Assembly: GCA_032718475.1 (NCBI GenBank)
Contig: JAUCBJ010007034.1
Coordinates: 1-50,830, forward strand
Source of the DNA: Nemertoderma westbladi
Taxonomy: Eukaryota > Animalia > Xenacoelomorpha
Direction: 5' to 3'
Length of the DNA stretch: 50,830 nt
This document shows, piece after piece, positions 22,232 through 43,130 of the stretch; positions within the stretch are counted from its first letter, which is position 1; the number at the start of each line of letters is the position of its first letter. The notes below the pieces were generated by a model. That model worked only from the letters and a program-made list of their open reading frames with translations, was not told where the DNA came from and ran no database searches. The translations under genes and the position numbers were made by a program.

Positions 22232-22910
22232 AAACAGAGGTTAGATGTGAGGTGACTTAGAGTTTGTCGGCTTTTGGCTCAACTCTGCTCTAAACCCCAA
22301 CCCATTTGCCTAATGACTTCGGGTTCGCGTGATTTCGCACTGGCCCCTAATCCAAAAAATTGTGCCGATAAAAAACGAATTCCGGGTAAACTAGCCGTGA
22401 GTCTAAAATACTCACCTTTTAATTTCCCCGCTACTTCCCAAAGAAAATAATGCAGTCGAGAATTAATTCGGTCTAAATAATAGTAGACACGACTACGTAG
22501 AACAAGGCCGATTTTCTTTTCCAAAAAAAAAATTTATCGGTAGGCTCGCAAGCCTTCCATCCGCTCTTGTCCTCCCCAATTTCAATTTTATCTAGCTGTA
22601 TTCTAGAATTTGCTTTCACTGGAGAATCGTTTTTCTTAAATTTAAATCCAAACAAATGGATTTGTCTAATAATTTTTGAAAAATTGTCTCACTTGTGGGT
22701 TCCAAGTGGAATTCCATTCCTACTGTACACACAATCCCGCTCCTATGTGATACATAAGGGTACTACCCTCCATGTTCACGTATAAAGACAATGGAATTCC
22801 ACCGCTGTCTCTATCTACAGTGAAGAGGATTACAAATGCACGTACAGTAATACAAATACAAATAACTAAAATACAGTAGGTCTATGTGGCGGCCAACAAA
22901 GGTCCCACAT

Positions 22911-24926
22911 CTATTTACTAATATTGGGTGGAGATTTGTAGTCTCCCGTCTCGTTTCTAGTCTCTTCAAGGAGTACGAGACGTTGTACAGGCCTGTCTAC
23001 GGTACGTCCGTCGATAGTCCTTACAGTAACTGTCCTCACTACACCAGATGTAGGGTGCGTGGTCAAAATGACTCCAGTCAACCAAAACCGTCTTTTCAGA
23101 TTAGCTTCAGCCAATAAAACATGGTCACCACGTCTTAAACATCGGGTATTTAGATACCAAGAGGTTCTGGTCGAAATAGAGGGCAAATAATATTTCTGCC
23201 ATATTTCCCAGAATTTATTTGCAAGCAATTGAGTGATTTTCCAAGCCTTGTTGCCGTATCCGTCACTATCAACGGGTACCGAAATGGGCAACAATGTCGT
23301 CGGCGCCTGCATAAGCAGGTGCGCTGGTGTCAAGGCAAACTGTACGTCGTTATTGTCTGGGATCAAAGCGATCGGTCTGGTATTTAAGATTGCTTCGATT
23401 TCTATTAGTAACGTCGTTAGTTGGTCGTCTGTCAAGATGTGTTGCGTCGGTACGACTTTAGCCATAGCTGTCTTTATTGAGCCAATCAGCCTTTCCCAAA
23501 CGCCGTCTCTCCACGGACTGTCTGGAGTATTGAAAACCCAAACAATACGGTGAGGACGTAGTTCCTCGGAAATCTGGTTTTGGTCCAATTTTCTCAAAGC
23601 TCTGGTTATCTCGTTCCGTGCACCCACAAAGTTTGTCCCTTGGTCGCAGTATATGGATTTGACCAATCCACGTCTAGCGATAAATCGCCGTAAGGCTAGG
23701 ATAAAGGCATTGGTGGTCAAGTCTGTCACTCGCTCTATATGGACAGCTCTGCTGGCCATGCAAGTGAAGATCAATCCCCAACGTTTTACCTGTACCCTTC
23801 CGCGTTTCGCGATTATGGGTCCAAAACAGTCTATTCCTGTCTCAGTGAAAGGGGGTCTAAACGCCTGTAATCTCGCTAATGGTAGTTCACTCATTTCTTG
23901 GTGTCCTATCCTCGCGTGCACCTTCTTACAAATAATACAGTTCCGTGTTACTGAACTCAGTGCCTTACTAGGTCTAATCAGTACAAACCTCGAACGTAAG
24001 TATGATAGACAGTGGTGTCTACCTACGTGTTTGAGTTGTACATGTGCGTCCAGTATCATAGCGCGCTGTAACTCATGGTGTTGCGGTATGATGATAGGAT
24101 ACCTAAAGTCAAGTGCAAAGTCGATGTTTTGGAGTCTGGACTTGTGACAAAGTAAGCCCCGGTAAATAATCGGACTCCAACTCAAAATCGGTGAAGACTT
24201 AATCTGTTTACCTTGTTTGATCGCTGTGAACTCTCGTGCGAAATATCGCAATTGATAATGTCTAATGATACCAACTTCACAGTGGTCAATTTCCTTTAAG
24301 GTAAGTCTTCTAGGAAAGTCGCGTTTGCCTCTGGCATATTGTCTCAATCGTTTGAGCCATGCTAACTTGCGGCACGCGTCAGTCCATGATCTAGTTAGGT
24401 TCACTATCCTGTCAACGTAAGTGTTAGTGACGTCATCGGGTAAGGTGTAGTCGTAGTGTGGATACTTGTCTGGACTTGGTAGGCCCACGGGCCTTCCGGT
24501 AGGTTTGTCTGAGTCCCCAAGTACGTCAATCTCTACGGTCTTACCTTTGCCGTCCGCACCTAATATGTTGACTGGCAGTAATGGTTTCAACTCTACAGTG
24601 TCAGTGTGTTCCTGTGAGCTTGTAAGCTTCCTAACCTTAGTCACCACTTTACCTGTAGGTAAGTCAAGTACCTTCTTCGAGCGGAGTGTAATCCCTGTGG
24701 CCACACCTTTGTCGTCCAAAGAAGTCAAATTTGGTAAGTCTCTAAAAGTCCGCTCCAATGGGTCTTCTAATGGAGTGTCTAGTAGACAGTCTGGTGAAGC
24801 GTCTGGTGAACAGTCTGGTGAGACGTCTGGTGAGACATAGCGCGGAACATCCGGCGAAATGTCCTGTCGTCGGTCCCAAAGTCTGTCTAGTGTATCTTCC
24901 GTCAGAAAGTCTGGTTCAAAGTCTGG
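22911..24926 (-). CDS. Inner pol segment: linker and integrase
   Basis: HVQLKH..CIIC zinc finger, GIDCFGP, CDQGTNFVG, GVWERLIG, RPVQRL; the frame extends upstream of 24758 to a +1 frameshift near 24927. Confidence 0.93.
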   Translation of the reverse strand, partial: PDFEPDFLTEDTLDRLWDRRQDISPDVPRYVSPDVSPDCSPDASPDCLLDTPLEDPLERTFRDLPNLTSLDDKGVATGITLRSKKVLDLPTGKVVTKVRKLTSSQEHTDTVELKPLLPVNILGADGKGKTVEIDVLGDSDKPTGRPVGLPSPDKYPHYDYTLPDDVTNTYVDRIVNLTRSWTDACRKLAWLKRLRQYARGKRDFPRRLTLKEIDHCEVGIIRHYQLRYFAREFTAIKQGKQIKSSPILSWSPIIYRGLLCHKSRLQNIDFALDFRYPIIIPQHHELQRAMILDAHVQLKHVGRHHCLSYLRSRFVLIRPSKALSSVTRNCIICKKVHARIGHQEMSELPLARLQAFRPPFTETGIDCFGPIIAKRGRVQVKRWGLIFTCMASRAVHIERVTDLTTNAFILALRRFIARRGLVKSIYCDQGTNFVGARNEITRALRKLDQNQISEELRPHRIVWVFNTPDSPWRDGVWERLIGSIKTAMAKVVPTQHILTDDQLTTLLIEIEAILNTRPIALIPDNNDVQFALTPAHLLMQAPTTLLPISVPVDSDGYGNKAWKITQLLANKFWEIWQKYYLPSISTRTSWYLNTRCLRRGDHVLLAEANLKRRFWLTGVILTTHPTSGVVRTVTVRTIDGRTVDRPVQRLVLLEETRNETGDYKSPPNISK

Positions 24927-25150
24927 TAGAGACGTCCGGTAGACATTCTGTCGAGAGTTCCATCAAACAATCTGGCGAACAATCCGGAGAACAATCTGGT
25001 GTCTCTTCTGGTGAATAGTCTGGCGAGTAATCTGGTGAACAATCCGGCGAAACGTCTGGTGAAATCTTCTGCGGAACATCCGGCGAAGGATTCGTACAAG
25101 CGTCTGGTCGAGTGTCTGGCGAGACGTCTGGCGTAATGTCAGGTCTGGCG
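24760..25150. repeat. Degenerate 12-bp coding minisatellite (SPDx repeats) between RNase H and integrase
   Basis: TCTGGTGAA/TCCGGCGAA iterations translating as SPDV/SPDC/SPDY. Confidence 0.85.
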
Positions 25151-26735
25151 TCCAGGTCATCAGATTTCGTCCGTCCTTTTTTCCTTTTGACCTTGGCGTT
25201 GGCTTTCGCTTTAGACTTGACAACCTTGTCGAGTTTTATCTCGGCACCCTCTGGTATGGTGTTGGTTGTCGCGTCGAATAACGGTGGCCATTCGTCTGAT
25301 GGTCGCTGTAGGAAATCGGGTCCTCTAAACCAAAAGGATTTATTGTCCGGTTTACAAAAGTCAAGTGGTTGCATCCCCCGTGACGCGATGTCAGCTGGGT
25401 TCAGCTTCCCTGGACAGTGACGCCAATCTTGTTTGAGCGACCGGTCTAATATTTCAGCCCGTCTGTTGGCTACGAAAGTCTTGAACTCGAATGTTTCGTT
25501 GTTTATGTACCAAAGTACCAACGTCGCATCCGTCCAATATGTGACCTTCAAGTTAGCCTCCAGCTCGCGTTGAACTAGACTGACAATATCGGTGGATATC
25601 GTCCCGGCTTGCAGCTCCCCACGAGGTACAGTCATATACTTCAATGGCATTGTTCTAGCCCTTGAAGTAACGAGAGACACATCGTAGCTGTCCGATGTCA
25701 CTTGTCGTCTAAGGTATAAGGTAACCCCCAATCCATCCTTGCTAGCGTCACTAAAGCTGTGAAGCTCTAAATCGGCAGGAAAGGTGGTTTGCAAAGGAAA
25801 GTATACCCTCGGTATGGTATAGTCTTGTAGGAACGTCAGTTGGGCTTCCCAGTCCCTCCATCGCTCAGCTAACTTTTCTGGGATGGGATCGTCCCATTCC
25901 AGTCCGGCTTGCCAAATGCTGCGGAGTATGATCCTGGCATGTAGGATCACTGGACTAATGAAACACAATGGGTCATACAATCGACTCATGGTCGATAAGC
26001 AAGTCCTCTTAGTGAGAGGTCTAGTCTGGTCGTTGGACCTTACACGTACCCTAAAATTGTCGGTGTTAGGGTCCCAACTAAGTCCTAATACTTTGGTCGT
26101 CGGCAGAGGTTCTAAGTCTAAGTCCAAGTCACCTCCGCTACGATCCATCGGGTCAAATGAGTTCACCAGTTCGGGTTCGTTGGAAGCGAACTTCGTCAGG
26201 TGAAATCCGCCCTCAGCGAGACAATCCTGGAGTTGGTGTGCTACGGTTGTAGCGCGCTCCAAGGTGTCACAACTCTTGAGGCCGTCATCCACGTAGAAAT
26301 CTCGTTCCACGGTCCGAACTACTTCTGGGTCAAATTGGTCTCGTCTGTCCAATGCTGTCTGCTTCAATGCGTACATGGTGCAGTTGGGGCTGTCCCTGGC
26401 TCCAAATACTCTTACCTGCATTTGGTAAGTTTCTGGCAGAAGTTGTAAGTTTCCGTCCGGATACCAAAGAAACCTCAAACTGTCCCTGTCCCGCTCCAAA
26501 GCCTTAACCTGGTGAAACATGGCCTCTACGTCACAGGTGAAAGCCACTTTGCGTTGTCTAAAACGCATTAGGACTCCCATGAGGTAATTATTCATATTCG
26601 GCCCGTCCATCAGTTCGCTGTTCATAGACATCCCTTGGTAAAGCGCAGCGCAGTCATTGACTACACGCACCTTGCCAGGTTTGTCCGGGTGTCGAACAAA
26701 ATGATGTGGCAGGTAATATGTCTGGTCTGTGGTTA
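24916..26735 (-). CDS. Inner pol segment: reverse transcriptase and BEL-type RNase H
   Basis: YYLPHH and PGKVRVVNDC upstream of the listed start, DVEAMFHQV, FYVDD, HSFSDAS, YWTDAT, WRHCPGKLNPADIASRG. Confidence 0.95.
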
Positions 26736-27752
26736 CCTGGCGTATCCCTTTTGGAGATACGTCTGAAGTTGTGCATTGTATTGCATATGGGCCGTCTCGT
26801 CTCGCAACAATCGCTGCCTTATTGATTTGAGTCGCCTCAAAGCAAGCGGGTAATTGTTAACGAGCTTAGGTTGTCCATTGCGCCACAACATACCAACCTC
26901 ATAGTGGCCATTCGCGGTCTGGCGAATGGTATCTCTCATAATATTTAATGACCGTTTTTCCTGTTCTGACATAGCGGTTTCGTAACTACCGGGTTCTGCT
27001 GAGTCCTGTTCCAACCATTGTATGGTCCGTTCAGTCAGCAGTCGGTCAAGCGCTGCTTGCACTGCTCCATGGTCCTCGTCCACGTCTTCGTCCGCTGCGG
27101 TGGCTAGTGTCAATGTGTCTGGTAGGCTCGCAAGCCTTCCGGTGTCACTAGTCGGCGTCGAATTGTCGTGCGGCGGTTTGACAACCTCTTGATCTATCGG
27201 TAGGCTCGCAAGCCTTCCAAGATCAACGACCGGTGTCGAAGCCTGGTGGGTGGGGTCAATGACCTTCGGATTTTTCGGTAGGCTCGCAAGCCTTCCAAAA
27301 TCCTCGTTCATCGAGTCATCCATGGCAACAACCCTTTGGCCTTCAGTAGTCAATACAACCTGGTCTACTGCAAGTAGTTGTAAGTCAGAGGTCCGTATGG
27401 TCGTGTCCAGATCGGTTGCGTCAGTATCGGTGGCGTCTGCATTAGTGACGCAAGTCTGTCGTAGTGCCGTCCGTACAATTGGACCACGAGAGTGTGAAGG
27501 AGAATTATCTATCGTGTTAGTCAATAAACTACACGTACTCAAAACGTCGTCCTCCTGGTCACTTACCTCTAGTGAACGTATTGGTGCTCTAGTATACCAA
27601 CCTATGGGAGTTCTACATGCGTAGGGGTTGCCCGCTGTAATAACAGATGGGCGTGTCTCCCATACCTGATGTAAGTTAAACTGGTCTGTCCCAATTAACA
27701 TCGCAATGGAACGATAATTAACAGGACATTCCGGTATTCCAAGGTGTCGGAA
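26733..27752 (-). CDS. Inner pol segment: protease C-terminus and PR-RT linker
   Basis: In frame with gag after the TAA at 27753-27755 (FRHLGIP..MLIGTD, TPIGW, GHYEVGMLW); ends in a frameshift at GYAR; contains three 78-bp repeats. Confidence 0.88.
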   Translation of the reverse strand, partial: FRHLGIPECPVNYRSIAMLIGTDQFNLHQVWETRPSVITAGNPYACRTPIGWYTRAPIRSLEVSDQEDDVLSTCSLLTNTIDNSPSHSRGPIVRTALRQTCVTNADATDTDATDLDTTIRTSDLQLLAVDQVVLTTEGQRVVAMDDSMNEDFGRLASLPKNPKVIDPTHQASTPVVDLGRLASLPIDQEVVKPPHDNSTPTSDTGRLASLPDTLTLATAADEDVDEDHGAVQAALDRLLTERTIQWLEQDSAEPGSYETAMSEQEKRSLNIMRDTIRQTANGHYEVGMLWRNGQPKLVNNYPLALRRLKSIRQRLLRDETAHMQYNAQLQTYLQKGYAR

Positions 27753-30700
27753 TTACTTACGATCTTCCGGTGATTGCTCTGGCACAGGGCCGAGCAAGTT
27801 ACTAAAGTCCTTCGTAGCTGCAAAGGTCAAATTTCTTACCGGAAGTAATGAGCGCTCCTCCTTGCTGTGTTCCGCTTTGGAAAGAAGAGTGTCTAAGGTT
27901 AGTTTTACTCTTGTCACGGGGATCGCTCTCTTACCATGCATGCTGCTTACAGTATACTGAGCAGTCTTACCTTGACTCATGTCCGTAACTACGTCGGCTA
28001 CTTGTTCGTCGACATAACTATGCGATGACGCAGAGTCTAAGATGGCGTATATACGCTTGCTCCCTCGGGTTCCGGTAATCTTTATAGGAATCACGCTAAA
28101 CCCTTTCAATTGGTTCTGTGTGAGGAGCGTTATCGATGGCTGTTCCTCACCTGCATGCACGTAGAAAGTGTCGTCTTCCTCCTCGTCCTCGTCCGATGAT
28201 CCTGACTGATCCATACAGTCGGTATAAAAGGTACGGATCTCGCGCGGCGCACGCTCCTTATAAAGCGCGTCGCATCTAGCCGCTTTATCTGGATGCTCTC
28301 GTCGAAATTGTCTGGTCGGAGTATGACTGGTTGTGTGAAGCAACGCGTCATGGTTACGTCCACACAGAGAACATGTATCGTCGCTCGGGCAATCCTTCCG
28401 GACGTGTCCTGGCTTCATACATCTCCAACAGGAATCTAGAGATCGGATTTGGAGTCTCCTCTCCTCGATCCCTAACTCTTTAAAAGCGCGACATCCACGT
28501 AGTTTATGTCCGCTTTGGTTTCTGCCGTTCCGCTCGCAGTATGAGCATCCCACAAAGTCCGCCGGCAACTGTTGTCGTGGCTGCGTGGTGCCGATAGGCG
28601 TCAGAACTTTAGAAGTCTCAGTAGGGGTGGCGTAAGTAACGGCTTTCGCGTTCGTCGGAAATGGTTTAGTCCGATTCGGCGCAGAAACAGCTATCCCTTC
28701 CGCCGCGATATGGTGATCGGTATAGTTCGATCTAGTCTCGATCATGGCCTCCCGTGAAATAAGTTGATAGACATCGGTGAGTTTTAATAACCCTCCGGCC
28801 TCTTCGCGCTGGTACTCGATGCGTCGCCATTCTCTTCGTAGTCGATGGTGAAGTCGACCGATTATTCGAATGAGAACCGTCGGTGCGTTAGCGTACTCGA
28901 GTTGTCCAATGGACCGTAAAGTCCCTATAGCGTTCTTTATTTCGTCCGCGAGTCGTAAAAGGTCGATCGGTCTCGAAATGTTGCCTCCTCTGCAGAGGTC
29001 TTCAATAATGGATTTAGCCATGGCGACATTACCGCCGTAAATCGAATACAAACGCTCGTACGCCAACTCAAAGGCATCGGGAACACCAATAAAGGTTTCC
29101 GCTAATCGTTTCGGCTCACCAGACAGAACTTGGAGCAAGTAATTAAACTTCTCCGTCGAGGTGAAAGCACACTTAGCGATCTGGGACTCTACGTAGTCTA
29201 CCAGTGTGCGCCAATGTTTCGCGTTGCCAGAGAACTTCGGCGGTTGCTGTGCCGGTAATCCGTGTCTAGCCGCGAATTTCGCAATCTCGCTAACTAAGTC
29301 CAACTGTCCGCGTCCCTGTTCGGCGGCGTCGTCCAGTCGCTCCCTTCCGCGCGTTGTTCGTTGGTAGGAATTATTAACGGGATCTTCATCTCGATGTGTC
29401 GGAGTCCGTCTAGTCTCCTGTTCTCTCCTCGGTGGTCGATGTTGTCTAGGTTGTTCCAACTCCACGCTGGTTCGTGATCGATCCGACGGTTGCGCTTCGA
29501 GTCGCTCTTCGAGTTGAGCTAGTCGGTCCGTTACAGGTCGCATTATTTCGGCGAGTCTGTTGGTGCTGATCGCTTCCGCTGGTTGCAACGTGGGTTTCTG
29601 TTGGGGTGTTTCTCGTGGAGGATTATCGATATAGGGGTTCGTCGATCGTTCCTCCCGTTTGTAATCCGCTGCCGCTGCCGCTCCAGTACGGAATATTTCC
29701 CGTTCCGTCGACTCCGGGTCACTGGATGAATCGCTGTCGTCCGGATAAGGTGGTTGGCGGGTTCGCGTCCGGCGTATTATTCTTGGTCGAGTTCGTCGTG
29801 GTCTGGGATCTACGGCTCCTCGTTGTTCGGTAGGCTCGCAAGCCTTCCACGAAGTCGTAGGTCTCGTTAAACATTGGGTGAGAGGTCTAGTAAAAACATC
29901 TGAGTTAAGTTCTACTGTAGGTTTATAAATGACTGGGTTCGCGCAGCACGTCACAGGTTTAACTTGCAATGGTTTACTCACCTGTTTTACTGTCATAAAC
30001 GCAGGTTCGTCTCTCTCCACAAGTAAACTACGACTTACTGTAGGTGGACTAGTTATGTTACCTGCTAAAATTGGCGATGAAGTCGCCCTAGGTTGCGGTA
30101 TTTCCATCACAACAAACCTGCTACCTTGCGTCTGGCGCACAGGCGTTATTTCCTTAGGTTTCGTAACAAAGACCGGTTTTATCGGAGTCGTGGGTTTGAG
30201 CATTGGAATAACTTGGGGAAAACGTTTACAGTAATCCTCGACGAACTCCTCTCCTCGATCTATCGCTCCCACACTTCCTTCCTCGATTCGCTTCTGGATT
30301 CCGCGATATCGAGTCTCCATGCGATCCAGGGCAGACAAGTCGTGTCCAGTTCGAGACCTTATAGATCTATCTCTCGCGTCGAGTTCGAGGTCCGCTTGCG
30401 CGTTCGCTGCCTCGCGCGATCTACGATTCAGTTCGAACTGGAGCTGCATCTCTCTTTCGCGTCGATCTGCTTCCTGTTGTTGTGCCGCTAACTCCGCTTC
30501 CTGTATCGCTAAACGAGCGTTTATTTGTCGCGCCTCCAACTTGGCACGAGCGTCGGATGCTGCTTTCTTCCGTGCTAACTCAGCTGCGTTTACCGCCGCA
30601 ACTCGTGCTAACTCGTCGGCTGCCGCCGCTGCCTGTCGTGCTAGCTCGTCAGCTGCTGCCGCCGCGGCCGCTTCTCGCGCTAAGTCCTCCTCCAGTCTCC

Positions 30701-31694
30701 GCATCTCTGATGCTTCGAACTCAGCCTGTGCTTGAAGTTTCGCAAGTTTCGCTACATCCTCTCTGCGCTGTTTTTCTCCTTCGATGGCGATCTGTGCCAT
30801 CTGTAGTTGCGCTTCTTCCTCGGCGACTTGTTGTCGGCGTGCGACCTCCTGTTGTTGTCGAATAATTACAGATGCTGTTCTACTAACGTTGCCAACGTCG
30901 CCAACGTCGCTCCGTACGCTCACGAACGATCTATCCAGTGGTGGATGTTGGTAGGCTCGCGAGCCTTCCGTAGTGAGAACTTCCGTCGTCCCTCGCGGTT
31001 CGACTTCCGGTTCGTCGATCGGTACGCCGCATCTACGAAGAAAATTGGTCAGCGTTTCCAACCTTCCGTCCAGGCAGTAGAGTTCTTCTTCCTCTTCGGG
31101 TTGTAACAACGCGTCCGAAACTGACTCACCTAGCAGTTGGTCGAACTGCTCCTGTTGAGCCAATCTTATTACCGACTTAAACTGGATAAGGCTTTCTCTC
31201 GCACTTACCAATTTATCTACTATCTTTACCTGAGTAAAGTTGTCGCCACGCAACTCTGCAAGTTCGTGCAAACCTTTAAGTTTATCTACGGAGGCATGTA
31301 CCCTACTTTCTATCCTTACCTTTAAGGTGTAGAACTCGTATCTCGACATCGGGGCGGTTAACTCGCGTAAAACGCGAAAACCTTCTCCGAGGTTCCGAGT
31401 AATCTGGGCCATGTGTCCTCCTATACTTCTAATAACGTTCTCCTGGCTTCCAGTCGAACTTACCATGTCCGGTTCCCGTGATCTAGTCTGCGGGACGGTA
31501 AGGAAATCTTCAATTCTGCCGTCGCCACGCGTTGCGGCTTCCGGTATTTCCGTTCGGGGTACCGGCGACGCAAGCGGTGTGACATCGGTGGAATCTCGGG
31601 TTCTCCTTCTCGGTTCGTCTACTGTCGATCTGTCCGGGTCGCACGAGTCATAGTCGGTAGGTGGGTATCTCGTCGAATGGGGTGTGTCACTCAT
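27753..31694 (-). CDS. Inner Gag and aspartic protease N-terminus
   Basis: Ala/Glu coiled coil, PPKFSGNAKHW (DUF1759-like), BEL triple zinc motif (CSYC..H..C, CWRCMKPGHVRKDC, CSLCGRNHDALLH), ILDSASSHSY. Confidence 0.94.
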   Translation of the reverse strand: MSDTPHSTRYPPTDYDSCDPDRSTVDEPRRRTRDSTDVTPLASPVPRTEIPEAATRGDGRIEDFLTVPQTRSREPDMVSSTGSQENVIRSIGGHMAQITRNLGEGFRVLRELTAPMSRYEFYTLKVRIESRVHASVDKLKGLHELAELRGDNFTQVKIVDKLVSARESLIQFKSVIRLAQQEQFDQLLGESVSDALLQPEEEEELYCLDGRLETLTNFLRRCGVPIDEPEVEPRGTTEVLTTEGSRAYQHPPLDRSFVSVRSDVGDVGNVSRTASVIIRQQQEVARRQQVAEEEAQLQMAQIAIEGEKQRREDVAKLAKLQAQAEFEASEMRRLEEDLAREAAAAAAADELARQAAAAADELARVAAVNAAELARKKAASDARAKLEARQINARLAIQEAELAAQQQEADRREREMQLQFELNRRSREAANAQADLELDARDRSIRSRTGHDLSALDRMETRYRGIQKRIEEGSVGAIDRGEEFVEDYCKRFPQVIPMLKPTTPIKPVFVTKPKEITPVRQTQGSRFVVMEIPQPRATSSPILAGNITSPPTVSRSLLVERDEPAFMTVKQVSKPLQVKPVTCCANPVIYKPTVELNSDVFTRPLTQCLTRPTTSWKACEPTEQRGAVDPRPRRTRPRIIRRTRTRQPPYPDDSDSSSDPESTEREIFRTGAAAAADYKREERSTNPYIDNPPRETPQQKPTLQPAEAISTNRLAEIMRPVTDRLAQLEERLEAQPSDRSRTSVELEQPRQHRPPRREQETRRTPTHRDEDPVNNSYQRTTRGRERLDDAAEQGRGQLDLVSEIAKFAARHGLPAQQPPKFSGNAKHWRTLVDYVESQIAKCAFTSTEKFNYLLQVLSGEPKRLAETFIGVPDAFELAYERLYSIYGGNVAMAKSIIEDLCRGGNISRPIDLLRLADEIKNAIGTLRSIGQLEYANAPTVLIRIIGRLHHRLRREWRRIEYQREEAGGLLKLTDVYQLISREAMIETRSNYTDHHIAAEGIAVSAPNRTKPFPTNAKAVTYATPTETSKVLTPIGTTQPRQQLPADFVGCSYCERNGRNQSGHKLRGCRAFKELGIEERRLQIRSLDSCWRCMKPGHVRKDCPSDDTCSLCGRNHDALLHTTSHTPTRQFRREHPDKAARCDALYKERAPREIRTFYTDCMDQSGSSDEDEEEDDTFYVHAGEEQPSITLLTQNQLKGFSVIPIKITGTRGSKRIYAILDSASSHSYVDEQVADVVTDMSQGKTAQYTVSSMHGKRAIPVTRVKLTLDTLLSKAEHSKEERSLLPVRNLTFAATKDFSNLLGPVPEQSPEDRK

Positions 31695-32685
31695 GTCTTA
31701 TTATATACGTCAAGTACGGATAATAAAATGTCAAAGTGTCTGAATGTTGAAGTGTCAAACTTACCTAACCGGTACAAATAAATCAACAAGTCAGAATGTC
31801 GAAATGTCAAAATGTCGAAATGTACAAATGTCAAACTTACCTTGATATATATATATATCATATATATACCCTAACCGGTACAAATAAACTAACAAGGTAT
31901 ATAATAAAATAAGTAGTAATCTAGCCTACCGGCTAAATTTGTACGAATAAGTGAGATAACGGTATACGTTAACAAAATGTAGATCAACAAGTATAAACAA
32001 TAGGCCTAACAGCAACGTCTAACGGGAAAATAAGTACCAACAACACTACTAATAGACAGTGAAACCCACAAATTTTGAGTACTACTGTGCTTTCTTAAGT
32101 TTGAACGACGCGAGTCGTAAAACTTACGTTCCTTTGATCTTCCAGTCGTACAAATTCCCAAATACAAACCGGACGTGGGTCTTTCCGTTTTTCGGCGGCG
32201 CGGACGAATTTATTGTCTCCCAAACTTTGCGAAAAGCGGTCTAATCCTCGAAGCGGTCCAGAAATGAGTCCTTGAGTCCTGAAAAGGTCGAAGGTGAGAG
32301 TTTTACTTCTACGCTTACGAAAATCTTCCTAGGTACCGATACAAATTGGTCTTTAAACCCTATGTACCTTTTCAAGTACCGAAAAGTAACACCGCACACA
32401 CACGGCGTAAAACAAAGTGCTACAAACTAACTGTTAGCTAGTCAAAGATTAAATACGAAAGTACTAGCTACCCTAAAAGCCTACTGAAGCAGGGGACGTT
32501 CTAAATTACTAAATTTACTAACCTTAGTTTTTAAATATCTCCTACTTACAATAGCTAACAAATATTTATCTATATCTCACTTTAAATGCGCACGCACTTT
32601 CGGTCGAGATATTTAATAAATACTTCCTACTTCCAATAGCTAGCAGATCTAAACTATACTACAGTACTATACACTAATTTATATA

Positions 32686-32696
32686 GTACTTCCTAC
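32686..32696 (-). promoter_or_regulatory. Non-tRNA primer-binding position of inner element (GTAGGAAGTAC)
   Basis: Abuts the 5' LTR, lacks TGG, and is the exact complement of transcript-strand GTACTTCCTAC at 33956-33966. Confidence 0.62.
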
Positions 32697-34453
32697 TGTA
32701 AGGGTCCAGTAGTATACCGCTTACCAGATCCTAGTAACGATGTATCTTACTATGAGACTCTAGTAATGTATACGGGCTTGTACAGTATCTGACAACAAAT
32801 CCCAGTCCAGGATATCTAAACAAACAGATACAATACACAAACGACTACTGGCGAGGAACAGAGCCTTGTATCTATTCTATGTACGTGAGCGGGTCTAATG
32901 CCTACGTACTAGACAGAAGGATACCTGTCCTCTAACCGGTGAGGCAGATGTACAGTTACAGTAACAGACCAAACTCACGGGAAAACAATCCCCGCGCAGC
33001 GAATCCTAACTATCACTGACAGTCCTAAATACAGTAACTTGCCGCGGTGTGATTTATATGGTTTATATACGAGCTAGGTGGTTAACAGACCTAGTGTAAC
33101 AACACTGACAGTCCTAAATCAGTCGAAAAGGGGTCGTGCCTAAATGTAACAATAACTGATCCCCCTGTACGAAATCAGTCTAAAGGGTCAGGCCTAAATG
33201 TAACAATAACTGCTGGATAGAAATCAACAGTTTAATAACGAAAGTGAAATACTCCTTTCGCCACAACTAAATCAGATCCTAATTTTACAAATACAGATAA
33301 TTTCCACCTAAAGTAATGTATAGTGCGCTATAGCTAGTAGAACTTTAAGGGCAATATGTTTTAGGGCGTGTGTGTGTGGGTGTGTTACAAATAAAACAAT
33401 TTCGTGTAATTCCTTTTACTAGGTTTTAGTGATTTTCTGACTAAATGATACCGTGCGCTAGCTACTAAAATAAACTAGTCGCGTTTGTAGAACTTTATAC
33501 TCACGAATGATGTCAAAGCTCTCTCCTTCCTATCCACAACCCAATGGGCAACCACAGTGTTAGTAACTACACCCGTGATCGGCACTAATACCAGATTCTG
33601 GTTGTAAGATAAGAATAGGGGTTAATCGCTACCGTACGTTAGCTGATCTGGTATACTAATTTAATTCTAGAACTTTGTTGCTGCGGTAGTTAGCAGCAAT
33701 ACCTATCAGTACGTGGCAAGGTGCGGTAGGATATTAATAAAACCTCCCTAGGCCAAGCAGTGTGCCGGTAGCAGAAATGCTCCTTGCCTGATCAAATAGC
33801 TAACTCCAGACAGGGGGGGGGGGGGGTACTAATGTACGTTCTACAAAGCGAACCGGTACCAAACAGTCAGTGCTATGAATCACTAAATTATGGAACATAT
33901 GCTGTCCGTACCTAATATGTACTCGCGTACTGACGAATGGCAATAGTTCGCACCTGTAGGAAGTACAGGTTAACCCAGGGATTCGTAGGACTTGACAAGG
34001 GGGGGTGTCTGGATATAATTATTTGATCCTAAATTTGCGGCGTCCAGTACGGTGTCACGCTTACCCTGATCTATAGGTCTTACGGCGGGCAAGGGCGTCG
34101 AACAAAGTCTTACCTTCTCACAAAGCGGGCGCTGCATAGCAAGTGGAGTATTTCGAAGGGCAAAGGGGGTGCGCGGTCAATCCAATGTGGGCGCTAGCGT
34201 GTTGTGGACATCCCTTCCCTGCGTTGCTTACGGCCTAACGGTCTAGGCTGCCATCTCCCTGATGTTTGGCTGTCCCGAAGTTGGACCAAAAGAAAACATG
34301 TCAGGAATTTGCAGTATATTTACAGTTTTACAAAAGGATTTATCAAATAAAGTTTCAACAAGAAACCGAAATAAACTAATAACAATTTAGGAATTTGCAA
34401 GAGTAAGTGATAACGTAACGTGATATTAGGTGATAACCGAAGGCAAACCGGCC

Positions 34454-34705
34454 TTTTTATACTAGAAATTGCACATGGAAACTAAACAGAATTTTCCACA
34501 GCTTCACAATTGAGCAATGAAGTGCTTCGTGCCCTATGATTGGCCCAGCTCATCGTTCAACGCAGTCCGGCCCTTACACTAATCTGGGACATGGAATCCT
34601 AACAGAATTTTCCACTGCCTCACATTTGAGCAATAAGATAATTTATGCCCTATGATTGGCCTGGCTCATCATTCGCTACGCTGTACGCTTCTCATTGGCC
34701 TACCA
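34454..34705 (-). promoter_or_regulatory. Putative Pol II promoter in inner U3
   Basis: TATAAAAA at 34461-34454; three GGCCAAT boxes upstream; two ~116-bp direct repeats containing TTGAGCAAT and TTTTCCA. Confidence 0.6.
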
Positions 34706-34747
34706 ATTAGCACCACACGAAAATAAATGGCCCCAAAATACAAATTT

Positions 34748-34815
34748 CCCGACTGGGATTCGAACTCGTAACCTATGTAATGTAACCAACGCCTTAACCA
34801 TCTGACCACTACGCC
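34748..34815 (-). other. tRNA-like A/B-box cassette in inner 5' LTR
   Basis: Copy of 20911-20978. Confidence 0.6.
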
Positions 34816-35514
34816 ACGAGAGTACCTAAGGGTTTTATGTGTACAAATATGAATAGGCATATTACATTACTGTAACTCAATCAAAATACGTCGGATTTTC
34901 GAAAGTTTTTACGTTAAAGTTAAACTACAAATGCTATCTTATAGTGAAATAATTCATCAATACGGCTATAGGTCGTCAGGCGGTGGTATTTTCCTATCTG
35001 GACAGTGCAATATATTTACTACTACTTATTATTTTCAAATACCGTAGTACCCTGTCCGTTGTAATAACCAGAATTCTAACCCTTTGTTAGGCTGGTTTGT
35101 AGACTTCCTGTAAAATTACCCTAAAAATTCGTACGTAATATTTTGTTGTGTTTAATTAGAGATTTAATCTCACCCATATCGTAAGTAATTTGTAGTATTA
35201 AGTAACTTAGGTAAATTAGAATTATCTGTTTTAGTGTCCAATAAATAGCACTTCACTGAGAGCGCCCAGCTTCTGTGTAGTGACCCCCCAGAAATAATAA
35301 CATTTTATTTCGAATATTGACAAAACCCATTTTAAACGAGTATATAAATATTATAAATCAACTCAACCGATTTATAAATAGTAGGCCTGCCATACAACAA
35401 CTAGGTCTCAATATCAGTTGGACTACTGCTTAAATAACGGTAATAAAGTAAGTTAAAGTACGGTAACCAAGTAACCCTAAAATATTCAGAAATTCAATTA
35501 TTCTAAAATAATTG

Positions 35515-35765: not shown

Positions 35766-35897
35766 AATATATTATATATATCACGCTACACTGAGTAGCA
35801 GTATCGGTAATTAATTGTTAGGCTAACAGTGATACTGAATTACTAGACTTACTTTAACTGTATTTATAGCCGTAGGCATTCAACTGTGTAAACAAAC

Positions 35898-37040
35898 ATG
35901 TCAGACGCAACCCAATCACTGTCAGATAGTCTCTTAGAAAGTGTTAGAATGAGTATTAGACTTAGACAGCGTATTAAAAGGATCTGTGACCAAGATCAAA
36001 GTATAGAACATCCCAGATCCAAGTCTAAGTCACCTACTATTGTAAAAAAGGCCATACCTACAGTAGTAGTGTCAGACCCTAGGCTAGTAGAACAACGTAG
36101 GTCTATCATCGGCACTCGGGCCCAAGTCAAGCGGGATCAAGAAGCAGCTGTCAAACCGCAGCAACATCCTAGCCAAGAACCTAGTTCTCAGCGGCCCGAT
36201 AGCTCCAGTAGTTCGGATACTGCTGAGCGGACACCCGAAAGCGGAGCGAAGATGGCGGATACGGTTTATGATGAGCGGCCAACCTATGAAGAATCAGTCG
36301 ACGCCACTTCTTCTCAAGTGGAAAGCGAAGTGGAAAGCGAATTAACAGCAGCAGAGAAGCCGCGAACTAGAGACGCCATTGACATCTATCTGTCAGACTA
36401 TCAGCGATTCATAGGAGACGAAGAGTTGAGGAGACGACTGTCTGGACTTCGCCCTAATAGTGAAGGAACCAAGCTTGTGTTGGACGCAATCGATGCGGAA
36501 ATGTTAGCTGCGAACCAAGCTAAATTTGATGAACGACTCCGCCTCGTTAGAGTCCAAGAAGAACAAATAAAGAAAAAACAGATAGAGGACCGAAAGGCAG
36601 CAGCAGTAGCAGCGGCAATGGCAGAAGTAGAAGCAGAAAGAAAGGCAGCGGCGGCAGAAGTAGAAGCAGAAAGAAAGGCAGCGGAAGTAGAAGCAAAAAG
36701 AAAGGCAGCGGTAGCAGAAGCAGAAAGAAAGGCGGCAGCGGCAATGGCAAAGGCAGTGGCAGAAGCAGAACGGAGAGCGTCTGAGGAGACTACCCAACTG
36801 GAGTTGGAAAATCTGCAAGAGACGCAAGACTACATAAATAAACAGCTAACTGCTAGTCGAATGCAGATGATGAGACGATCTACTCCAAAACGCCAGGGAT
36901 ACACATCATCGGAGGAAAGCAAAACCACCGATCCTGAAGGCGGAGGAAATAGATCTCGTCTAAGCAGGCGTAGAAAAACATCTCACCGTCATAAACTGCC
37001 TGATTTGCCCCCAGCTGTCAGCAGACTAGCACAGACTTAG
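35898..37040 (+). CDS. Outer Gag N-terminal part (coiled coil), frameshifted relative to the rest
   Basis: 380-aa ORF with AEVEAERKAA repeats; the -1 frame is open from ~37004 into ORF 37142. Confidence 0.8.
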   Translation: MSDATQSLSDSLLESVRMSIRLRQRIKRICDQDQSIEHPRSKSKSPTIVKKAIPTVVVSDPRLVEQRRSIIGTRAQVKRDQEAAVKPQQHPSQEPSSQRPDSSSSSDTAERTPESGAKMADTVYDERPTYEESVDATSSQVESEVESELTAAEKPRTRDAIDIYLSDYQRFIGDEELRRRLSGLRPNSEGTKLVLDAIDAEMLAANQAKFDERLRLVRVQEEQIKKKQIEDRKAAAVAAAMAEVEAERKAAAAEVEAERKAAEVEAKRKAAVAEAERKAAAAMAKAVAEAERRASEETTQLELENLQETQDYINKQLTASRMQMMRRSTPKRQGYTSSEESKTTDPEGGGNRSRLSRRRKTSHRHKLPDLPPAVSRLAQT

Positions 37041-37141
37041 GTAGTACAGAACCCACAGACCAAATTATTAAGGTCAAAAGACTCCCTACCATAGTTGATG
37101 AGCCTGAAATAATTAGGCCTGTCGTTCCCAAAGTCACTCCT

Positions 37142-39169
37142 GTGCTAGAGACCCCTGTACTTCCAGAGCTTAACTCTAAGTTCCCTTTACACAGTACTAC
37201 ACTGCCTGTACCCGGTAGAACAGTCCATGAGAATATCCCTGTCCTGGAAGCTGAGAGAGAAATCAAAGATTTGTCTCCCGTCGTCCCGCGTCAGCCCGCT
37301 ACAATGTTGGCGACTCCCGCTTCGGCGGTTGAGTGGGTAGAGGAGGGACGGCGGGGGATGAATCTCCTGCTCGGACAGATGCAGGAGACTGTCCACCAGC
37401 TTAAGGGAACAGTAAGGGAAGGTAGGGCAGAATTGCAAGAAGTGCAGCAAAGTATCGCACTGGAAGGCGACAAATTAGTCAATATACAAAAGGGCATACC
37501 AATACCCCCTGTAACATTGTGTCAACCTGTTAGGTCTGAAGTATTACATGCGCAAGGTGTGGAGCCTACACGCATCTATACTGCTAGTGAAGTAGAAACT
37601 CCTATAGCAAACCCTATTAAGGGTGATTATAGACCTGTTGTTAATGATGTTCCCTATAGACCTGATAATGATCCGAGAAATTTATATACCGATAATTCGA
37701 TATTAAATAACACGATGGCCCAAGAAAGCTTTACGCGTCAGATGGCTAGAACAGAAGCCCGCCAAGCGGTCAAAGTGGGAGAGATCGTTAAATTCAATGG
37801 AGATGAGATGAAATGGCTACATTTCAATGAATATTACAAAGATAGCATACAAAACTCTGTACTATCTAACGGAGAGAAACTTAGGTTCCTCATCAAGTGC
37901 TTGGAAGGACCTCCCAGGTTAATGGCGTTAAAGTTTATTGGACATCCAGAAGGATTAAGACAAGTATGGGATACATTAAACATCAGGTATGGTAACAAGG
38001 ATAACATAGCTAAGTATTTGTATGCAAAATTAGTAGCCCCCCGACACTTCCTTAGTAGCGGGATTATAGAGTTTTCCGATGAGATTCAAGAGATCTGTAG
38101 ACAATTGGACTGGTTAGGTAAGTCTCATGAATATCAGAGTTCCATGGTTATTGGAGCCGTAGTCTCTACTTTACCAAAGGGTGGAGTATGTACACGCTGG
38201 GACAAGAAAGTGTTATATATGAATGAGCAGCAACGACGAAGCCCTACCATGGCTGATCTCATGTCCTTCTTAGATAGTGAAGTAAAATTACAACTCATAA
38301 AGCAGTCCAGAGAGAAAACATCGGAAAATAAGGTAAGTGAGAAACCCGTTTCTAGGAGAAGGATAATACCAGTGTGTTATACTGATGACGGCGAAAGCCA
38401 AGCTTCTCAAGAAGAGGACAGCGGGAAAGACACAGCAAAATTTTACTATGACAACAAGACCTATAAAGACGTAAGTAAATATAAGTCTCGAACCAACGAT
38501 AGGAGAGAACAGGTAACAACAACTCCTCCCACGTCTCCTAAGAGAATTCACGGAAGAAAGCCCGAAGAAAGAACGAGAGTGCATAACGTTACCCAAGGTA
38601 AAGTGAGTAACATCAAACCAAAATGTGCGCTGTGCGACGGGCCCCACCGTTTGAGTGCGTGTGCTGAATTTCTAAAGAAATCCCTTGTAGACAGACGTAC
38701 AGTCCTGTGGAATAAGCGGTTATGCTATAATTGCCTCAGATCAGGACACCAACGGCGAACCTGTTACTCCGACGTAAAGTGTGCAAAGTGTGGCGCGAAA
38801 CATCACATCTTGTTACACAGTGAGTTCGAACGAGACAACCCGAGTCAGGTAAGTGAGCCCGAACTACATGTCCAATTCAGTGATGTAAATGACACTGATC
38901 AAGAATCTGAGATGGAAGGATTCTATACGGACGAATTCTCCGACGCCAACGAATCCTGTTACCTAATAAATACCGCAGTGTATCGAGCACTTACGCATAA
39001 AAAGGACACCGACAATGAGTTCCCCCCAACTACCTTTGACAGACAACCATCTTGGAAAGCTCCAACTTCCAACTTAGGAATCAGAGAATTTCCTGTAGTG
39101 CAGGTAAGAGTTCATGGTCCTAACAAAAGTTACATAGTGAACGCCCTCCTTGACTCCGGCAGCACATGA
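37142..39169 (+). CDS. Outer Gag core, zinc knuckles and protease start
   Basis: IVKFNGDEMKW, CALCDGPHRLSAC, CYNCLRSGHQRRTC, CAKCGAKHHILLH, ALLDSGST then an in-frame TGA. Confidence 0.92.
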   Translation: MLETPVLPELNSKFPLHSTTLPVPGRTVHENIPVLEAEREIKDLSPVVPRQPATMLATPASAVEWVEEGRRGMNLLLGQMQETVHQLKGTVREGRAELQEVQQSIALEGDKLVNIQKGIPIPPVTLCQPVRSEVLHAQGVEPTRIYTASEVETPIANPIKGDYRPVVNDVPYRPDNDPRNLYTDNSILNNTMAQESFTRQMARTEARQAVKVGEIVKFNGDEMKWLHFNEYYKDSIQNSVLSNGEKLRFLIKCLEGPPRLMALKFIGHPEGLRQVWDTLNIRYGNKDNIAKYLYAKLVAPRHFLSSGIIEFSDEIQEICRQLDWLGKSHEYQSSMVIGAVVSTLPKGGVCTRWDKKVLYMNEQQRRSPTMADLMSFLDSEVKLQLIKQSREKTSENKVSEKPVSRRRIIPVCYTDDGESQASQEEDSGKDTAKFYYDNKTYKDVSKYKSRTNDRREQVTTTPPTSPKRIHGRKPEERTRVHNVTQGKVSNIKPKCALCDGPHRLSACAEFLKKSLVDRRTVLWNKRLCYNCLRSGHQRRTCYSDVKCAKCGAKHHILLHSEFERDNPSQVSEPELHVQFSDVNDTDQESEMEGFYTDEFSDANESCYLINTAVYRALTHKKDTDNEFPPTTFDRQPSWKAPTSNLGIREFPVVQVRVHGPNKSYIVNALLDSGST

Positions 39170-40057
39170 ACATTCATCGATCAAGAACTAGCCGAAGATA
39201 TATTTGCTGGACAACCCAAATTCCGGACTAAATTGAATATGTCAGGAATTATGCAGGTTTGGAAATCTACCCTAACGGCAGATTACTATGTAGGTGTGTT
39301 GTCCACCCCCCAGGATAAATTAGGAGCACAAGGTGTAAGGTCGGTAAAAATGGTGGCTATAAAGAACTTTGCTACTACTCAGGCAGACCTTTATAATTGG
39401 GACGAGGATGAGAGCATCCAACATCTTAAGATACCTCGATTCCAGACAGATTATCCTGGAGTGCAAATACTCATCGGCCAAAACGCGCATGAGGCACTCG
39501 AGACATTGGAGAAACGGCCTGCTCAACCGCAGCCACTACAAACCTATGCGGTAAGAACTAGAGTAGGTTGGTACTTCACTGACCCTTCCCGTAGAACTCT
39601 CAAAGAGAGATTACCTCAACAACAGGTATACCAAGTAAAGGAATGGGAAGTGGAGAGCAGTGATGTGGACGATCCAACTGAGGGAACACCATACTCCTCA
39701 GATAATGACGATATTAACTCCAATGTAGATCAATGGAGACATTGCCTTGGGACGATTAATCCATCCGACATCGCTTCCAGAGGAGCAACTCCTCAAGAAC
39801 TGATAGATACTCCAGGCTGGTTAGGTGGATCCGACTTCTTAAGTAAAGAAGAAGAAGAATGGCCTCCTCATCTTACCACAGCGAAGATTAGACAGGCCAA
39901 GGGAGCGGAGAAAGTAACACAACAACTCAATCGCCCAGCTGTTCGTTTATGTTTACTGGAAAGAGACCGAAAACTGTCCGGAAACTATGGAAGGCAAGAT
40001 ACTCTTCCTACGACCACTTCCCTAATCCGACAAATATCTAGGGACTCCATAACGTAA
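39170..40057 (+). pseudogene. Outer pol remnant: protease C-half fused in frame to the RNase H C-terminal motif; RT and integrase absent
   Basis: TFID..QILIG..TRVGW followed directly by QWRHCLGTINPSDIASRG..WLGGSDFL..EEEWP, then a stop. Confidence 0.88.
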
Positions 40058-40599
40058 TAACATATGGAGTGGGCGTGTGACTATATCATTTTATATTTGT
40101 TTTTATTTTATATTTATGTATGTATTATTATGTAATTTTATTATAATCGTTTTCTTTAATTTTATTTAGTAGAATGTTATTTTGGTGATTATTTAGTAGA
40201 TTAGTGCAATATATTAGTGTTTATTACGTACGTAATTACTTATAATATATACTTAGTGCGACGGCGAGAAATAATTTTTCTCTTTCCTTACTGTCCGTAT
40301 CATATTATAAATACGTGACTACAGTAAGATGAAATGTCTGTACTTATTAAAGTACAATAAAGCCACTACTATATTCAGGTATTATTGGTAGGCAGAGTAT
40401 TAGGAATGCAAAGTTCAGATCCTCGTGTCTCGGCTAAACCAAGCTCTGGGTAGACCTTGGAAACGACTTGCCTCTTCACACTGACATTGCTTCGTGCGAT
40501 ATTGCTCTTCTACCTTATATTAAATAATACATATAGTAGCGTGATGTCCATATAACAGTAGCGTAAAACGCAAATAAATCTGTTAAACCTTTTGACCAT

Positions 40600-40870
40600 C
40601 TGTAATTCTAGTCGATTAAGATATCGCGGCACCCACCGATATACTTGAAAGACAAATTCTAGAATCAGTGGTTAACGTCCCCAGACAAGCTCTGGAATAA
40701 ATCAGTGCCCATCTTAAATATTAATTTAATATTTAGTAAACTCTGTAAAATTCAGATCCTTTAAATTTCTAGTCAATTAAGATATCGCAGCACTTACCGA
40801 TACTCTTAAAGGACAATTGTCATAGAATTAAGGATCCTATGCCCCCAGACCTGCTCTGGAATCAAATTGT
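40600..40870. repeat. Degenerate ~163-bp duplication in outer 3' non-coding region
   Basis: TTCTAGTC.ATTAAGATATCGC.GCAC...CCCCAGAC..GCTCTGGAAT occurs twice. Confidence 0.7.
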
Positions 40871-41683
40871 GTCAATTTTAACATCAAATAATAAAATTCA
40901 CGGGAATAAATTTAAATTCATATTTTAAATGAATTTCATAAATTGTCATTTTGTACAATTTATAACATTCCCAAAATTCCATTAATTAATAGATCATGGG
41001 AGCGGAGATTCATCCTATTGAGTGTATTAGAGTGCGAGAATCCCCAACATATAGTCAATAGCCTATAAAATTAATAAAATCATGCATAAAGAGGATATTG
41101 ACAATTAAAGAATTATTATTAAATAGCATTCCAGATCTGTATGCATGAGAATTACCCTAATTCTACCGCTAGCATTCCATAATGTCACCATAGCAACACC
41201 CACGTTAGAATTAGAAGCAAGTTAAGGGAACAATAGAAAGCTTGTCCCATTGCATAGCATAGAGAATACATAACACACTGTTAGTATCCAAGGATACACA
41301 GTAATAACGTGACATTCTGGAATGCACTGACTAACGGACAAATGGCCTGTATGTGTACAATTGGTGACAGTTGTGTGGAATTTGTGCGTTTGTAGGTGAA
41401 TGTTACTGCTAAGGTGTGTTTACAGTAGCTAGTCGCAATTGTGAAAGTAGCCCAACTCTCCTATAGAAAGAACCTAAAGTGGATTCAAGCCTTTGGGACG
41501 GACAGTGGAGTGACTTGTGCCGGTTATCGTTGTCGTGCTGTTGCTACATGTTGGCGTAAACACCGCGACGACGGTACATCGGCGCTGAGAATCCCACTGT
41601 CCGGGGGCAAAGAGAGGTAGGCAGCGACGTCCGCTCGCCTAAACATAAACTCATTTCGATATTAACAAACTCAGATAGCAGAT

Positions 41684-42082
41684 ATGACGGAGTTGATAGA
41701 AGATGATCTTGGTATCAGGGAGCGATATACTCTACCTTTACAAGCATTTGTGGATAGCTTGATACGCGGTGAAACCGATCCAACCATTACGGAGGACGAT
41801 GGTCGTTATATCGAACCGCCGATGTCCCAAGAGCAACTTACGCGTGAATTGGACTATCGAAAATTCACCGCTCGCTATACGCATCGTAATAGTACGTATA
41901 TGGACTTCCTAACTACCGGCCATCCTATCGATTTACATGATACGGACAATGTAGACACCGAAAGGGAAATGGTTCTATTTAAATATCATACCCAGCGGAG
42001 TCGTAACGGTAAACCGAGAATAGATCATGAAAATTCTATTCGTAACAGACTGGGAAGACGAACCAATATGCCTAGAATCTGA
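41684..42082 (+). CDS. N-terminal part of outer accessory ORF (unknown function)
   Basis: 132-aa ORF; the frame stays open for ~77 codons after the TGA and contains CRLCASRDH. Confidence 0.6.
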   Translation: MTELIEDDLGIRERYTLPLQAFVDSLIRGETDPTITEDDGRYIEPPMSQEQLTRELDYRKFTARYTHRNSTYMDFLTTGHPIDLHDTDNVDTEREMVLFKYHTQRSRNGKPRIDHENSIRNRLGRRTNMPRI

Positions 42083-42176
42083 GGAGATTCAGCCTATCGC
42101 GCCCGGAACAGCGACAACGATTATATCCTAGAATGGTATCAAGGTCCACAGTGTCTCACTGCGTACAATTATCGCC

Positions 42177-43130
42177 ATGCCAACTATGTTTCTCGGCAAC
42201 GTTGTCGGTTATGCGCATCGAGAGACCATGTTACGCCCATGGACAAACGTCCGCTGTTCCTATTTCCACGAACAACCGGTGATGGAAATTTATTGTGCGT
42301 ATTGCAGACTCAATAACTTGCACATTTTTGCGGTTTGCCCTCAATTTATGACTCAATGTCACCATTGTCAACTAAAGGGACACGCCAGTTTCGATTGCCC
42401 TTTTAATCACGATTTGGAAAGCGTAGATGAAATGATCACACTACGTTACATCAGAGCTTGGGAAGCGAACGCTGATTTACATTGTGATTCGCGCCATCGC
42501 TATTATCCTGGACGCGCTTACGAAGGAGTTTATGCGTTCCATCCTTATCTATTCGCTTCTGTCGAACAGAAATCACGCATATCGAGTTACGAACTACTGA
42601 AGCGCGTCGGAGAATGTATTTCAACCAAATTCGTACGCAAATTTCTCAGGAGTGTTAATCCTAGCGACCTTCATTCCTATGACTTAATCAATTATATCCG
42701 TCAGGATCCGGACTATGGAGACTTGTTTGTTAACTCACACCCCGAGTTACAGGAAGTATATCGACGGCCTTACGAATACCGAGCCCGCGAACGCGAGTTG
42801 GAAAGAACCATTAAACCCCGGAGGTTTCTAACTGCCTATGGTCCACCCACGGCCCTCGTTCAGACCACTCGTAAAGGACCCGTAAGAGCGGCTGTCTTGA
42901 AACGAGCTCTCAAAGCCGTTAGACCCCTCTCCCCTGACGTTGATGTCAATCAACCCGGTACTTCGACTGGCGGATACACCGACCATAATCCTACACCCTC
43001 TGATGCAATCATATTGCACCCTTCACCCAGGAGTTATAGCCCTCCTTGTAAAGTGGCTCGCCCCAAAGAGAAAAGGACTCTGGCTAGCTTTAAAAAACTG
43101 CGTAAACGCCGTCCGCGCAAGAAAGACTAA
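42177..43130 (+). CDS. C-terminal part of outer accessory ORF: CCHC zinc-knuckle protein with basic NLS-like tail
   Basis: CAYCRLNNLHIFAVC, CHHCQLKGHASFDC, C-terminal KKLRKRRPRKKD; ends 78 bp before the 3' LTR. Confidence 0.72.
   Translation: MPTMFLGNVVGYAHRETMLRPWTNVRCSYFHEQPVMEIYCAYCRLNNLHIFAVCPQFMTQCHHCQLKGHASFDCPFNHDLESVDEMITLRYIRAWEANADLHCDSRHRYYPGRAYEGVYAFHPYLFASVEQKSRISSYELLKRVGECISTKFVRKFLRSVNPSDLHSYDLINYIRQDPDYGDLFVNSHPELQEVYRRPYEYRARERELERTIKPRRFLTAYGPPTALVQTTRKGPVRAAVLKRALKAVRPLSPDVDVNQPGTSTGGYTDHNPTPSDAIILHPSPRSYSPPCKVARPKEKRTLASFKKLRKRRPRKKD

Follow-up and report, generated by a model that had tools for sequence, protein, structure and literature searches.

A lineage of BEL/Pao retrotransposons probably primes minus-strand DNA with a segment of its own LTR RNA, cut internally, in place of a tRNA, judging from the sequences of two nested elements and their relatives. 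The site at the primer-binding site (PBS) position, next to the 5′ LTR, lacks TGG, is complementary to a segment within the element's own LTR and covaries with it, and in most relatives this segment is split by a GT–AG interval. We regard this signature as real, on strong comparative evidence, and infer the priming mechanism from it.

The window, that is, the whole stretch of 50,830 nt of Nemertoderma westbladi DNA that was analysed, contains two nested BEL/Pao elements, the inner on the minus strand and the outer on the plus strand. Their main parts are:

34959-32697, minus strand: inner 5′ LTR, 2263 nt, with TG...ACA ends
21122-18856, minus strand: inner 3′ LTR, which holds a second primer copy at 20129-20119
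21123-21129, minus strand: inner polypurine tract GGAGCGG
27753-31697, minus strand: inner gag (DUF1759, three zinc knuckles) and protease frame, with an in-frame stop at its end
22911-27752, minus strand: inner pol, three frames with two frameshifts, encoding RT-RNase H (Pao Peptidase_A17 family) and integrase (H2C2, DUF5641)
16284-17520, plus strand: outer 5′ LTR, 1237 nt, target-site duplication CTGAT
43209-44445, plus strand: outer 3′ LTR, with GGGAGCGG just before it and a primer copy at 43708-43718

Both are BEL/Pao elements, with TG...CA LTRs and target-site duplications (the 5-bp CGTAT for the inner, CTGAT for the outer) and, in the inner one, the tract GGAGCGG. The inner element spans 16.1 kb, with LTRs of 2.26 kb that are 99.65% identical, and its open reading frames are interrupted by one in-frame stop and two frameshifts. 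Its predicted proteins place it in BEL/Pao despite the lack of a tRNA PBS, with a DUF1759 Gag, a Pao-type RT-RNase H and the order PR-RT-RH-IN. Pfam matches are PF03564, PF05380 (E 2.6e-40), PF17921 (under its curated cut-off) and PF18701, and PF05380 is present in 120 of the 120 homologues listed. The inner RT-RNase H shares 38–47% identity with these 120 best-listed homologues, among which the named hosts are marine invertebrates and fish. Two arrays of a 12-nt repeat with SPDV/SPDC-like units lie between the inner RNase H and integrase (24754-25087), and 1.8 kb separate the integrase from the 3′ LTR (21123-22910, minus strand), including a 151-codon frame (22043-21588) with no Pfam match.

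Over 35892-43130 (plus strand), the outer element keeps gag and protease, and its RT and integrase are almost entirely gone. Since its LTRs nevertheless differ at merely 3 of 1237 sites, it was likely mobilised with help in trans. It contains an extra frame of 332 codons (42132-43130, plus strand) with a CCHC-like motif and no Pfam match, and its leader carries tandem repeats at 17584-17713 and 17886-18464 (38-nt units; 288-nt duplication), upstream of the inner insertion site. A 260-nt inverted pair (15432-15691 and 45512-45771), 97% complementary and with (TAG)n-run ends, flanks the nest and likely represents two copies of a short dispersed repeat.

The sites relevant to priming of the inner element are:

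32686-32696, minus strand: inner PBS position GTAGGAAGTAC, without TGG and without spacer
33966-33956, minus strand: inner candidate self-primer GTACTTCCTAC, exact complement of the inner PBS, at LTR position 994
32630-32621, minus strand: 10-nt echo of the inner PBS, 66 nt downstream of it
34456-34461, minus strand: TATAAA, candidate LTR promoter, 495 nt upstream of the inner primer
34113 and 34064, minus strand: two candidate 5′ splice donors, AAG/GTAAGA and AGG/GTAAGC respectively, upstream of the primer, by consensus match only

The inner 5′ LTR terminates in ...CCCTTACA at 32697 and is followed at once by GTAGGAAGTAC. The first-pass annotation had claimed this junction, with no TGG, and the claim is borne out with the LTR end defined independently, by the divergence point of the two LTR copies and the 5-bp target-site duplication. 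The exact complement that it had placed inside the LTR is equally real: the match is exactly 11 nt long, no longer, and recurred in only 21 of 20000 dinucleotide LTR shuffles at offset 0 and in 84 of 20000 at offsets 0–3. Just 7 of 11564 internal 11-mers, the PBS included, have a complement in the LTR. The echo noted downstream of the PBS was found as well. Loss of TGG by deletion in this single copy was rejected, the outer element and most relatives also being without TGG.

No tRNA gene was found in the window by ARAGORN at default settings, and an Rfam search over 31500-35200 gave merely two matches, both sub-threshold. The U3 of both inner LTRs contains a tRNA-like segment (34822-34745 and 20985-20908, minus strand), called by ARAGORN at lowered threshold only, with motifs that we take to be an A-box and a B-box; it is possibly a captured SINE head or Pol III unit. 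It was rejected as a self-encoded primer, the longest PBS complement in the LTR being the 11-mer elsewhere.

The outer element has the same arrangement:

17521-17531, plus strand: outer PBS position ATAACAGTTAT, without TGG and without spacer
16783-16793, plus strand: outer candidate self-primer ATAACTGTTAT, exact 11-nt complement of ATAACAGTTAT

Here, 26 of 20000 shuffles gave the match by chance, and 6 of 9569 internal 11-mers have an LTR complement. The inner and outer PBS share no sequence, yet both pair with their own LTR, which amounts to covariation. As the outer 11-mer is nearly palindromic, its two sites also agree at 10 of 11 positions as a direct repeat.

Relatives were collected with an alignment of the window RT-RNase H and 40 of the 120 homologues listed as query, and the best 80 of 559 confirmed loci, all on metagenome contigs, were retained; two scans of viral_contigs found no relative. 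Both LTR ends were visible in 14 loci, of which L043 (a sibling of L025) and L022 (whose repeat falls short of the LTR end) were dropped, and the LTR ends of L066 and L072 were placed by hand at the nearest ACA. The test set of 14 elements comprised the remaining 12 loci and the two window elements, with LTR ends taken from both copies and PBS offsets of 0–9. This analysis revealed an LTR complement of at least 10 nt, contiguous or across any GT..AG, in 13 of the 14 elements, compared with 11 of 182 controls in which the LTR of another family was swapped in and 29 of 308 at other positions. With strict splice sites, 11 of 14 elements match, against 5/182 and 7/308 in the swap and position controls; under these settings, L025 fails the acceptor filter and L072 requires one G:U pair. 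A contiguous-only search missed most relatives, and allowing split matches recovered them. The sole matchless element, L036, carries TGGTCCAATCGAGCCGG, a TGG site, behind a 5-nt spacer, and L062 and L079 are alike; we take all three to be tRNA-type, on the basis of typical tRNA 3′ ends rather than of host tRNA matches. When 58 other loci, many of them truncated and each with many sites, were scanned blind, 13 split and 3 credible contiguous matches emerged, besides contiguous ones at 9 loci that were judged chance; this result serves as a lead and not as a test.

Covariation between the post-LTR site and its LTR complement, which the first-pass annotation had proposed as a check, is present: the pairing is retained in the outer element and in the 24 relatives of a table whose 26 rows (the two window elements included) hold 21 different PBS 10-mers, although this table was selected for having a match and is not a test. 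The duplicates L017, L024 and L043 and the weaker L028 and L055 were left out of it, and in two rows the LTR set against the PBS comes from an almost identical sibling locus. All 26 PBS begin with G or A followed by T (L038 shifted by one base), and the spacers of 0–9 nt bracket the 5–6 nt of the TGG-type elements. In L021 (77-95), the post-LTR sequence starts with TGG, yet over 14 nt from its third base it is complementary to the splice junction predicted for the LTR of its sibling L029; a TGG start by itself therefore does not show tRNA priming. Of 25 elements, 7 carry a second copy of the first 8–10 nt of the PBS no more than 130 nt away, compared with 15 of 500 control windows. The carriers are the inner element, L008, L009, L014, L019, L025 and L072 (L014, L019 and L072 being related), and six of these echoes lie in U5, that of the inner element downstream.

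Of the 24 tabulated relatives, 17 yield the complement only when a predicted GT–AG intron in the LTR is taken out, while in 7 it is contiguous. The split primers combine 4–9 nt of exon 1 with 3–8 nt of exon 2, and the predicted introns span 71–612 nt, with donors that read GT[AG] and acceptors that read YAG and are rich in pyrimidines. In L041, the 5′ LTR copy shows an acceptor-like end, with the donor beyond the contig, and the 3′ copy shows the joined form; this contig may be a merger of two copies. Unrooted RT trees were built from 34 rows and, with FastTree, from 96 rows, with no reference elements of the named BEL/Pao clades Sinbad, Sparrow, Surcouf, Suzu, Dan, Flow and Tas among the sequences. 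On the 34-row tree, the distinction between TGG-type and self-complementary elements takes 1 change and that between split and contiguous primers 6. The inner RT forms a long branch with at most 48% identity, which makes its relatives distant ones, and it appears to lie close to L021 (split) as well as to the TGG group.

The caveat of the first-pass annotation that the primer would be internal to the transcript gains support, as no TATA-like motif lies 25–35 nt upstream of any tabulated primer. Such motifs occur in 12 of the 24 relatives, at least 68 nt upstream of the primer, and 340–495 nt upstream in the window elements; these predicted promoter positions argue against the primer being the first nucleotides of the transcript. 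Further motifs, TATATAAA and TATAAA, lie downstream of the primer in the inner LTR (33069-33053, minus strand) and could drive a primer-less mRNA, by analogy with the downstream start described for Tf2 in the available part of PMC5341516. A search of sequencing runs listed no RNA data set carrying the element. Contigs from one sequencing run of guessed type (share 0.32) cover 25 of 30 bins without joints and enter both the PPT side and a flank, and are thus uninformative on inner splicing or the start site.

Distances and predicted folds differ between the window elements and their relatives. The primer lies 1259 nt from the LTR end in the inner element and 727 nt in the outer, and 60–245 nt in the 21 relatives measured. 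A primer/PBS helix was predicted with a probability of at least 0.5 in 14 of the 21 relatives folded and of less than 0.5 in 7, and with a probability of about zero in both window elements (0.04 or less), where the sites fall in predicted local hairpins; the inner primer GTACTTCCTAC is within one of 7 bp. The inner helix stays at 0.00 in 8 of 8 modelled shortened leaders (downstream intron, 8 acceptors), and no convincing acceptor for a loop-shortening intron was found in the outer LTR. A U5–leader stem is predicted for the inner element, and the central helix of the three-duplex "pretzel" that surrounds the PBS in the Tf1/sushi group is not predicted in the window elements. Folding predictions over 1–1.5 kb are unreliable, and as modelled, folding of the window elements gives no support to the pairing.

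In the mechanism that we propose, the site of 10–15 nt after the 5′ LTR would pair with the segment inside the element's own LTR RNA, and this segment, well inside the transcript, would fold onto the PBS with nucleocapsid help. The element's RNase H would then cut the 3′ end of the segment, as in Tf1, so that the primer would terminate in AC or AU; the expected 3′ ends are ...CUUCCUAC (inner) and ...CUGUUAU (outer). RT would copy U5 and the remaining R up to the cut and jump to the 3′ R, and the primer segment would be regained from the 3′ LTR copy. Relatives with an intron would depend on the host's splicing for their primer to be assembled, and the window elements would carry the contiguous, ready-made form that one related family (L041) appears to show beside the intron form. 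The persistence of introns in progeny LTRs weighs against this reading, as the cis model accounts for it only if the 3′ LTR copy stays unspliced; contiguous families may be cases in which the 3′ LTR copy did get spliced. On balance, we lean slightly towards a wider interpretation, in which a widespread marine BEL/Pao lineage would use, in place of tRNA priming, an internal self-primer joined by the host spliceosome out of two LTR exons, with splicing licensing reverse transcription; the window elements would be intron-less or rewired members, and the inner CAG/GT may act as a switch between primer-less mRNA and primer-bearing genome.

Four other explanations were considered. Introns persisting in both LTRs, as in the 17 of 24 relatives, would be accounted for if a short spliced LTR-only transcript (or a second packaged RNA), trimmed or cut to the duplex, primed the unspliced genomic RNA in trans. 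The long loops of the window elements would then be irrelevant, and short LTR transcripts are plausible because 22 of the 24 relatives have A[AT]TAAA at a distance of 5–135 nt past the primer. However, the loops of 60–245 nt and the in-cis helices predicted in 14 of the 21 relatives suit a cis fold, and we consider priming in trans unlikely. It is a little less probable still that the pairing acts in something other than priming (in RNA dimerisation, in packaging or as a switch for translation or splicing) and that the primer is something else. In the window, each 11-mer is nearly palindromic and falls in a predicted hairpin, the hairpins of the inner pair having complementary loops (CTTCC and GGAAG), PBS echoes of at least 8 nt are found in 7/25 elements versus 15/500 control windows, and fungal GalEa is described as having a palindromic hairpin where the PBS would be (PMC5445492, available part). 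On the other hand, the site always adjoins the LTR end, which is the required primer position, with no other PBS there, most relatives' sites are not palindromic, and the duplex end is kept as a purine followed by T in 26 of 26 rows.

Half-tRNA priming is known from Ty1/copia lineages, according to the available part of PMC6317226, and a tRNA half or some other small RNA of the host might likewise serve as primer here, with the LTR match secondary. This is very improbable given 21 different PBS 10-mers, each fitting its own LTR and rarely another's (11/182 swaps), none of which has TGG at the duplex start. Finally, the inner primer is followed by CTACAG/GTGCGA. The 3′-splice-site context that the first-pass annotation had seen at the 11-mer is there, though this junction scores as a 5′ donor too. 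Donor-like 34113 or 34064 and the acceptor-like CTACAG, 2 nt behind the primer, would delimit introns of 160 or 111 nt, inside the relatives' range. That the primer is the 3′ end of such an excised LTR intron, or that splicing there removes the primer to leave a translation-only mRNA, is the least probable of the four, since the terminal AG of the intron would not pair with the LTR end and the primer spans the exon–exon junction in relatives; nor is the intron-derived primer suggested in the first-pass annotation general, because behind the outer site stands CG rather than AG. Splicing at the inner site could regulate the primer without producing it.

If self-priming of these BEL/Pao elements is true, it would extend the phenomenon to a third LTR superfamily and in a new form, that of an internal primer often built by splicing. 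Retrotransposition would be tied to host splicing, and the elements, as we infer, would be freed from tRNA supply and tRNA-fragment silencing. It would explain why tRNA-based PBS finders would miss such elements, and it predicts an RNase H activity unlike that of Tf1, cutting within a long RNA. BEL/Pao replication has been called poorly understood and tRNA-primed (PMC8742986). No PBS, tRNA or priming is mentioned in the available parts of the main texts of three BEL/Pao papers (PMC554778, PMC3118150, PMC6238403), and a literature search whose coverage excluded subscription papers and repeat-database notes returned no report of BEL/Pao self-priming or of a splice-built primer.

In the ICTV description, Belpaoviridae have an 18-nt PBS for tRNA-Arg or tRNA-Gly, LTRs of 0.2–1.2 kb and genomes of 4.2–10 kb (PMC8742986). 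The inner element resembles them in its LTRs, polypurine tract, DUF1759 gag, Pao-type RT-RNase H and integrase after RNase H, but differs from that description in its lack of a tRNA PBS, its LTRs of 2.26 kb and its span of 16.1 kb (PMC8742986). Self-priming has been described for Tf1/sushi, Tcn1 and plant TAR in the accessible parts of four sources (PMC6317226, PMC4600332, PMC5341516, bioRxiv 10.1101/2022.12.06.519325). Tf1 RNA pairs through its first 11 bases with the PBS, and RNase H cleaves it directly after base 11, before base 12 (PMC7175516, available part). As far as the available texts go, the window elements share with Tf1/Tf2/Tj1 and Tf1/sushi the absence of a tRNA site and a PBS of about 11 nt, adjoining the 5′ LTR, to which a stretch of the same element's LTR transcript is complementary (PMC7175516, PMC4600332, bioRxiv 10.1101/2022.12.06.519325). 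RNase H cleavage is the expected release of the 3′ end in Tf1/sushi, according to the same sources, and by analogy would serve BEL/Pao elements. In contrast, Tf1/sushi elements are Ty3/gypsy chromoviruses and thus of a different superfamily, whereas the inner element has Pao-type domains and no chromodomain match. Moreover, Tf1 primes with the initial 11 nt of its RNA, while the BEL/Pao primer is predicted to be internal and, in most relatives, split by an intron. What Tf1 offers as a precedent is the cutting of an 11-nt primer at the very start of the RNA; cleavage downstream of a long 5′ tail has no known precedent and counts against our reading, so that "like Tf1" is valid for the principle only.

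As for plant TAR (Ty1/copia) and Tcn1, self-priming is predicted from sequence alone, and these predictions imply that it arose in more than one superfamily (PMC6317226, available sections). TAR differs in being a group of plant elements, for which the available sections of the same source mention no intron-split primer (PMC6317226). Fungal GalEa, in what is available of its description, likewise has a short palindromic sequence in place of the PBS (PMC5445492). Its authors, in that part of the text, saw no LTR complement, whereas every testable non-TGG BEL/Pao element has one, with a family-specific sequence (PMC5445492).
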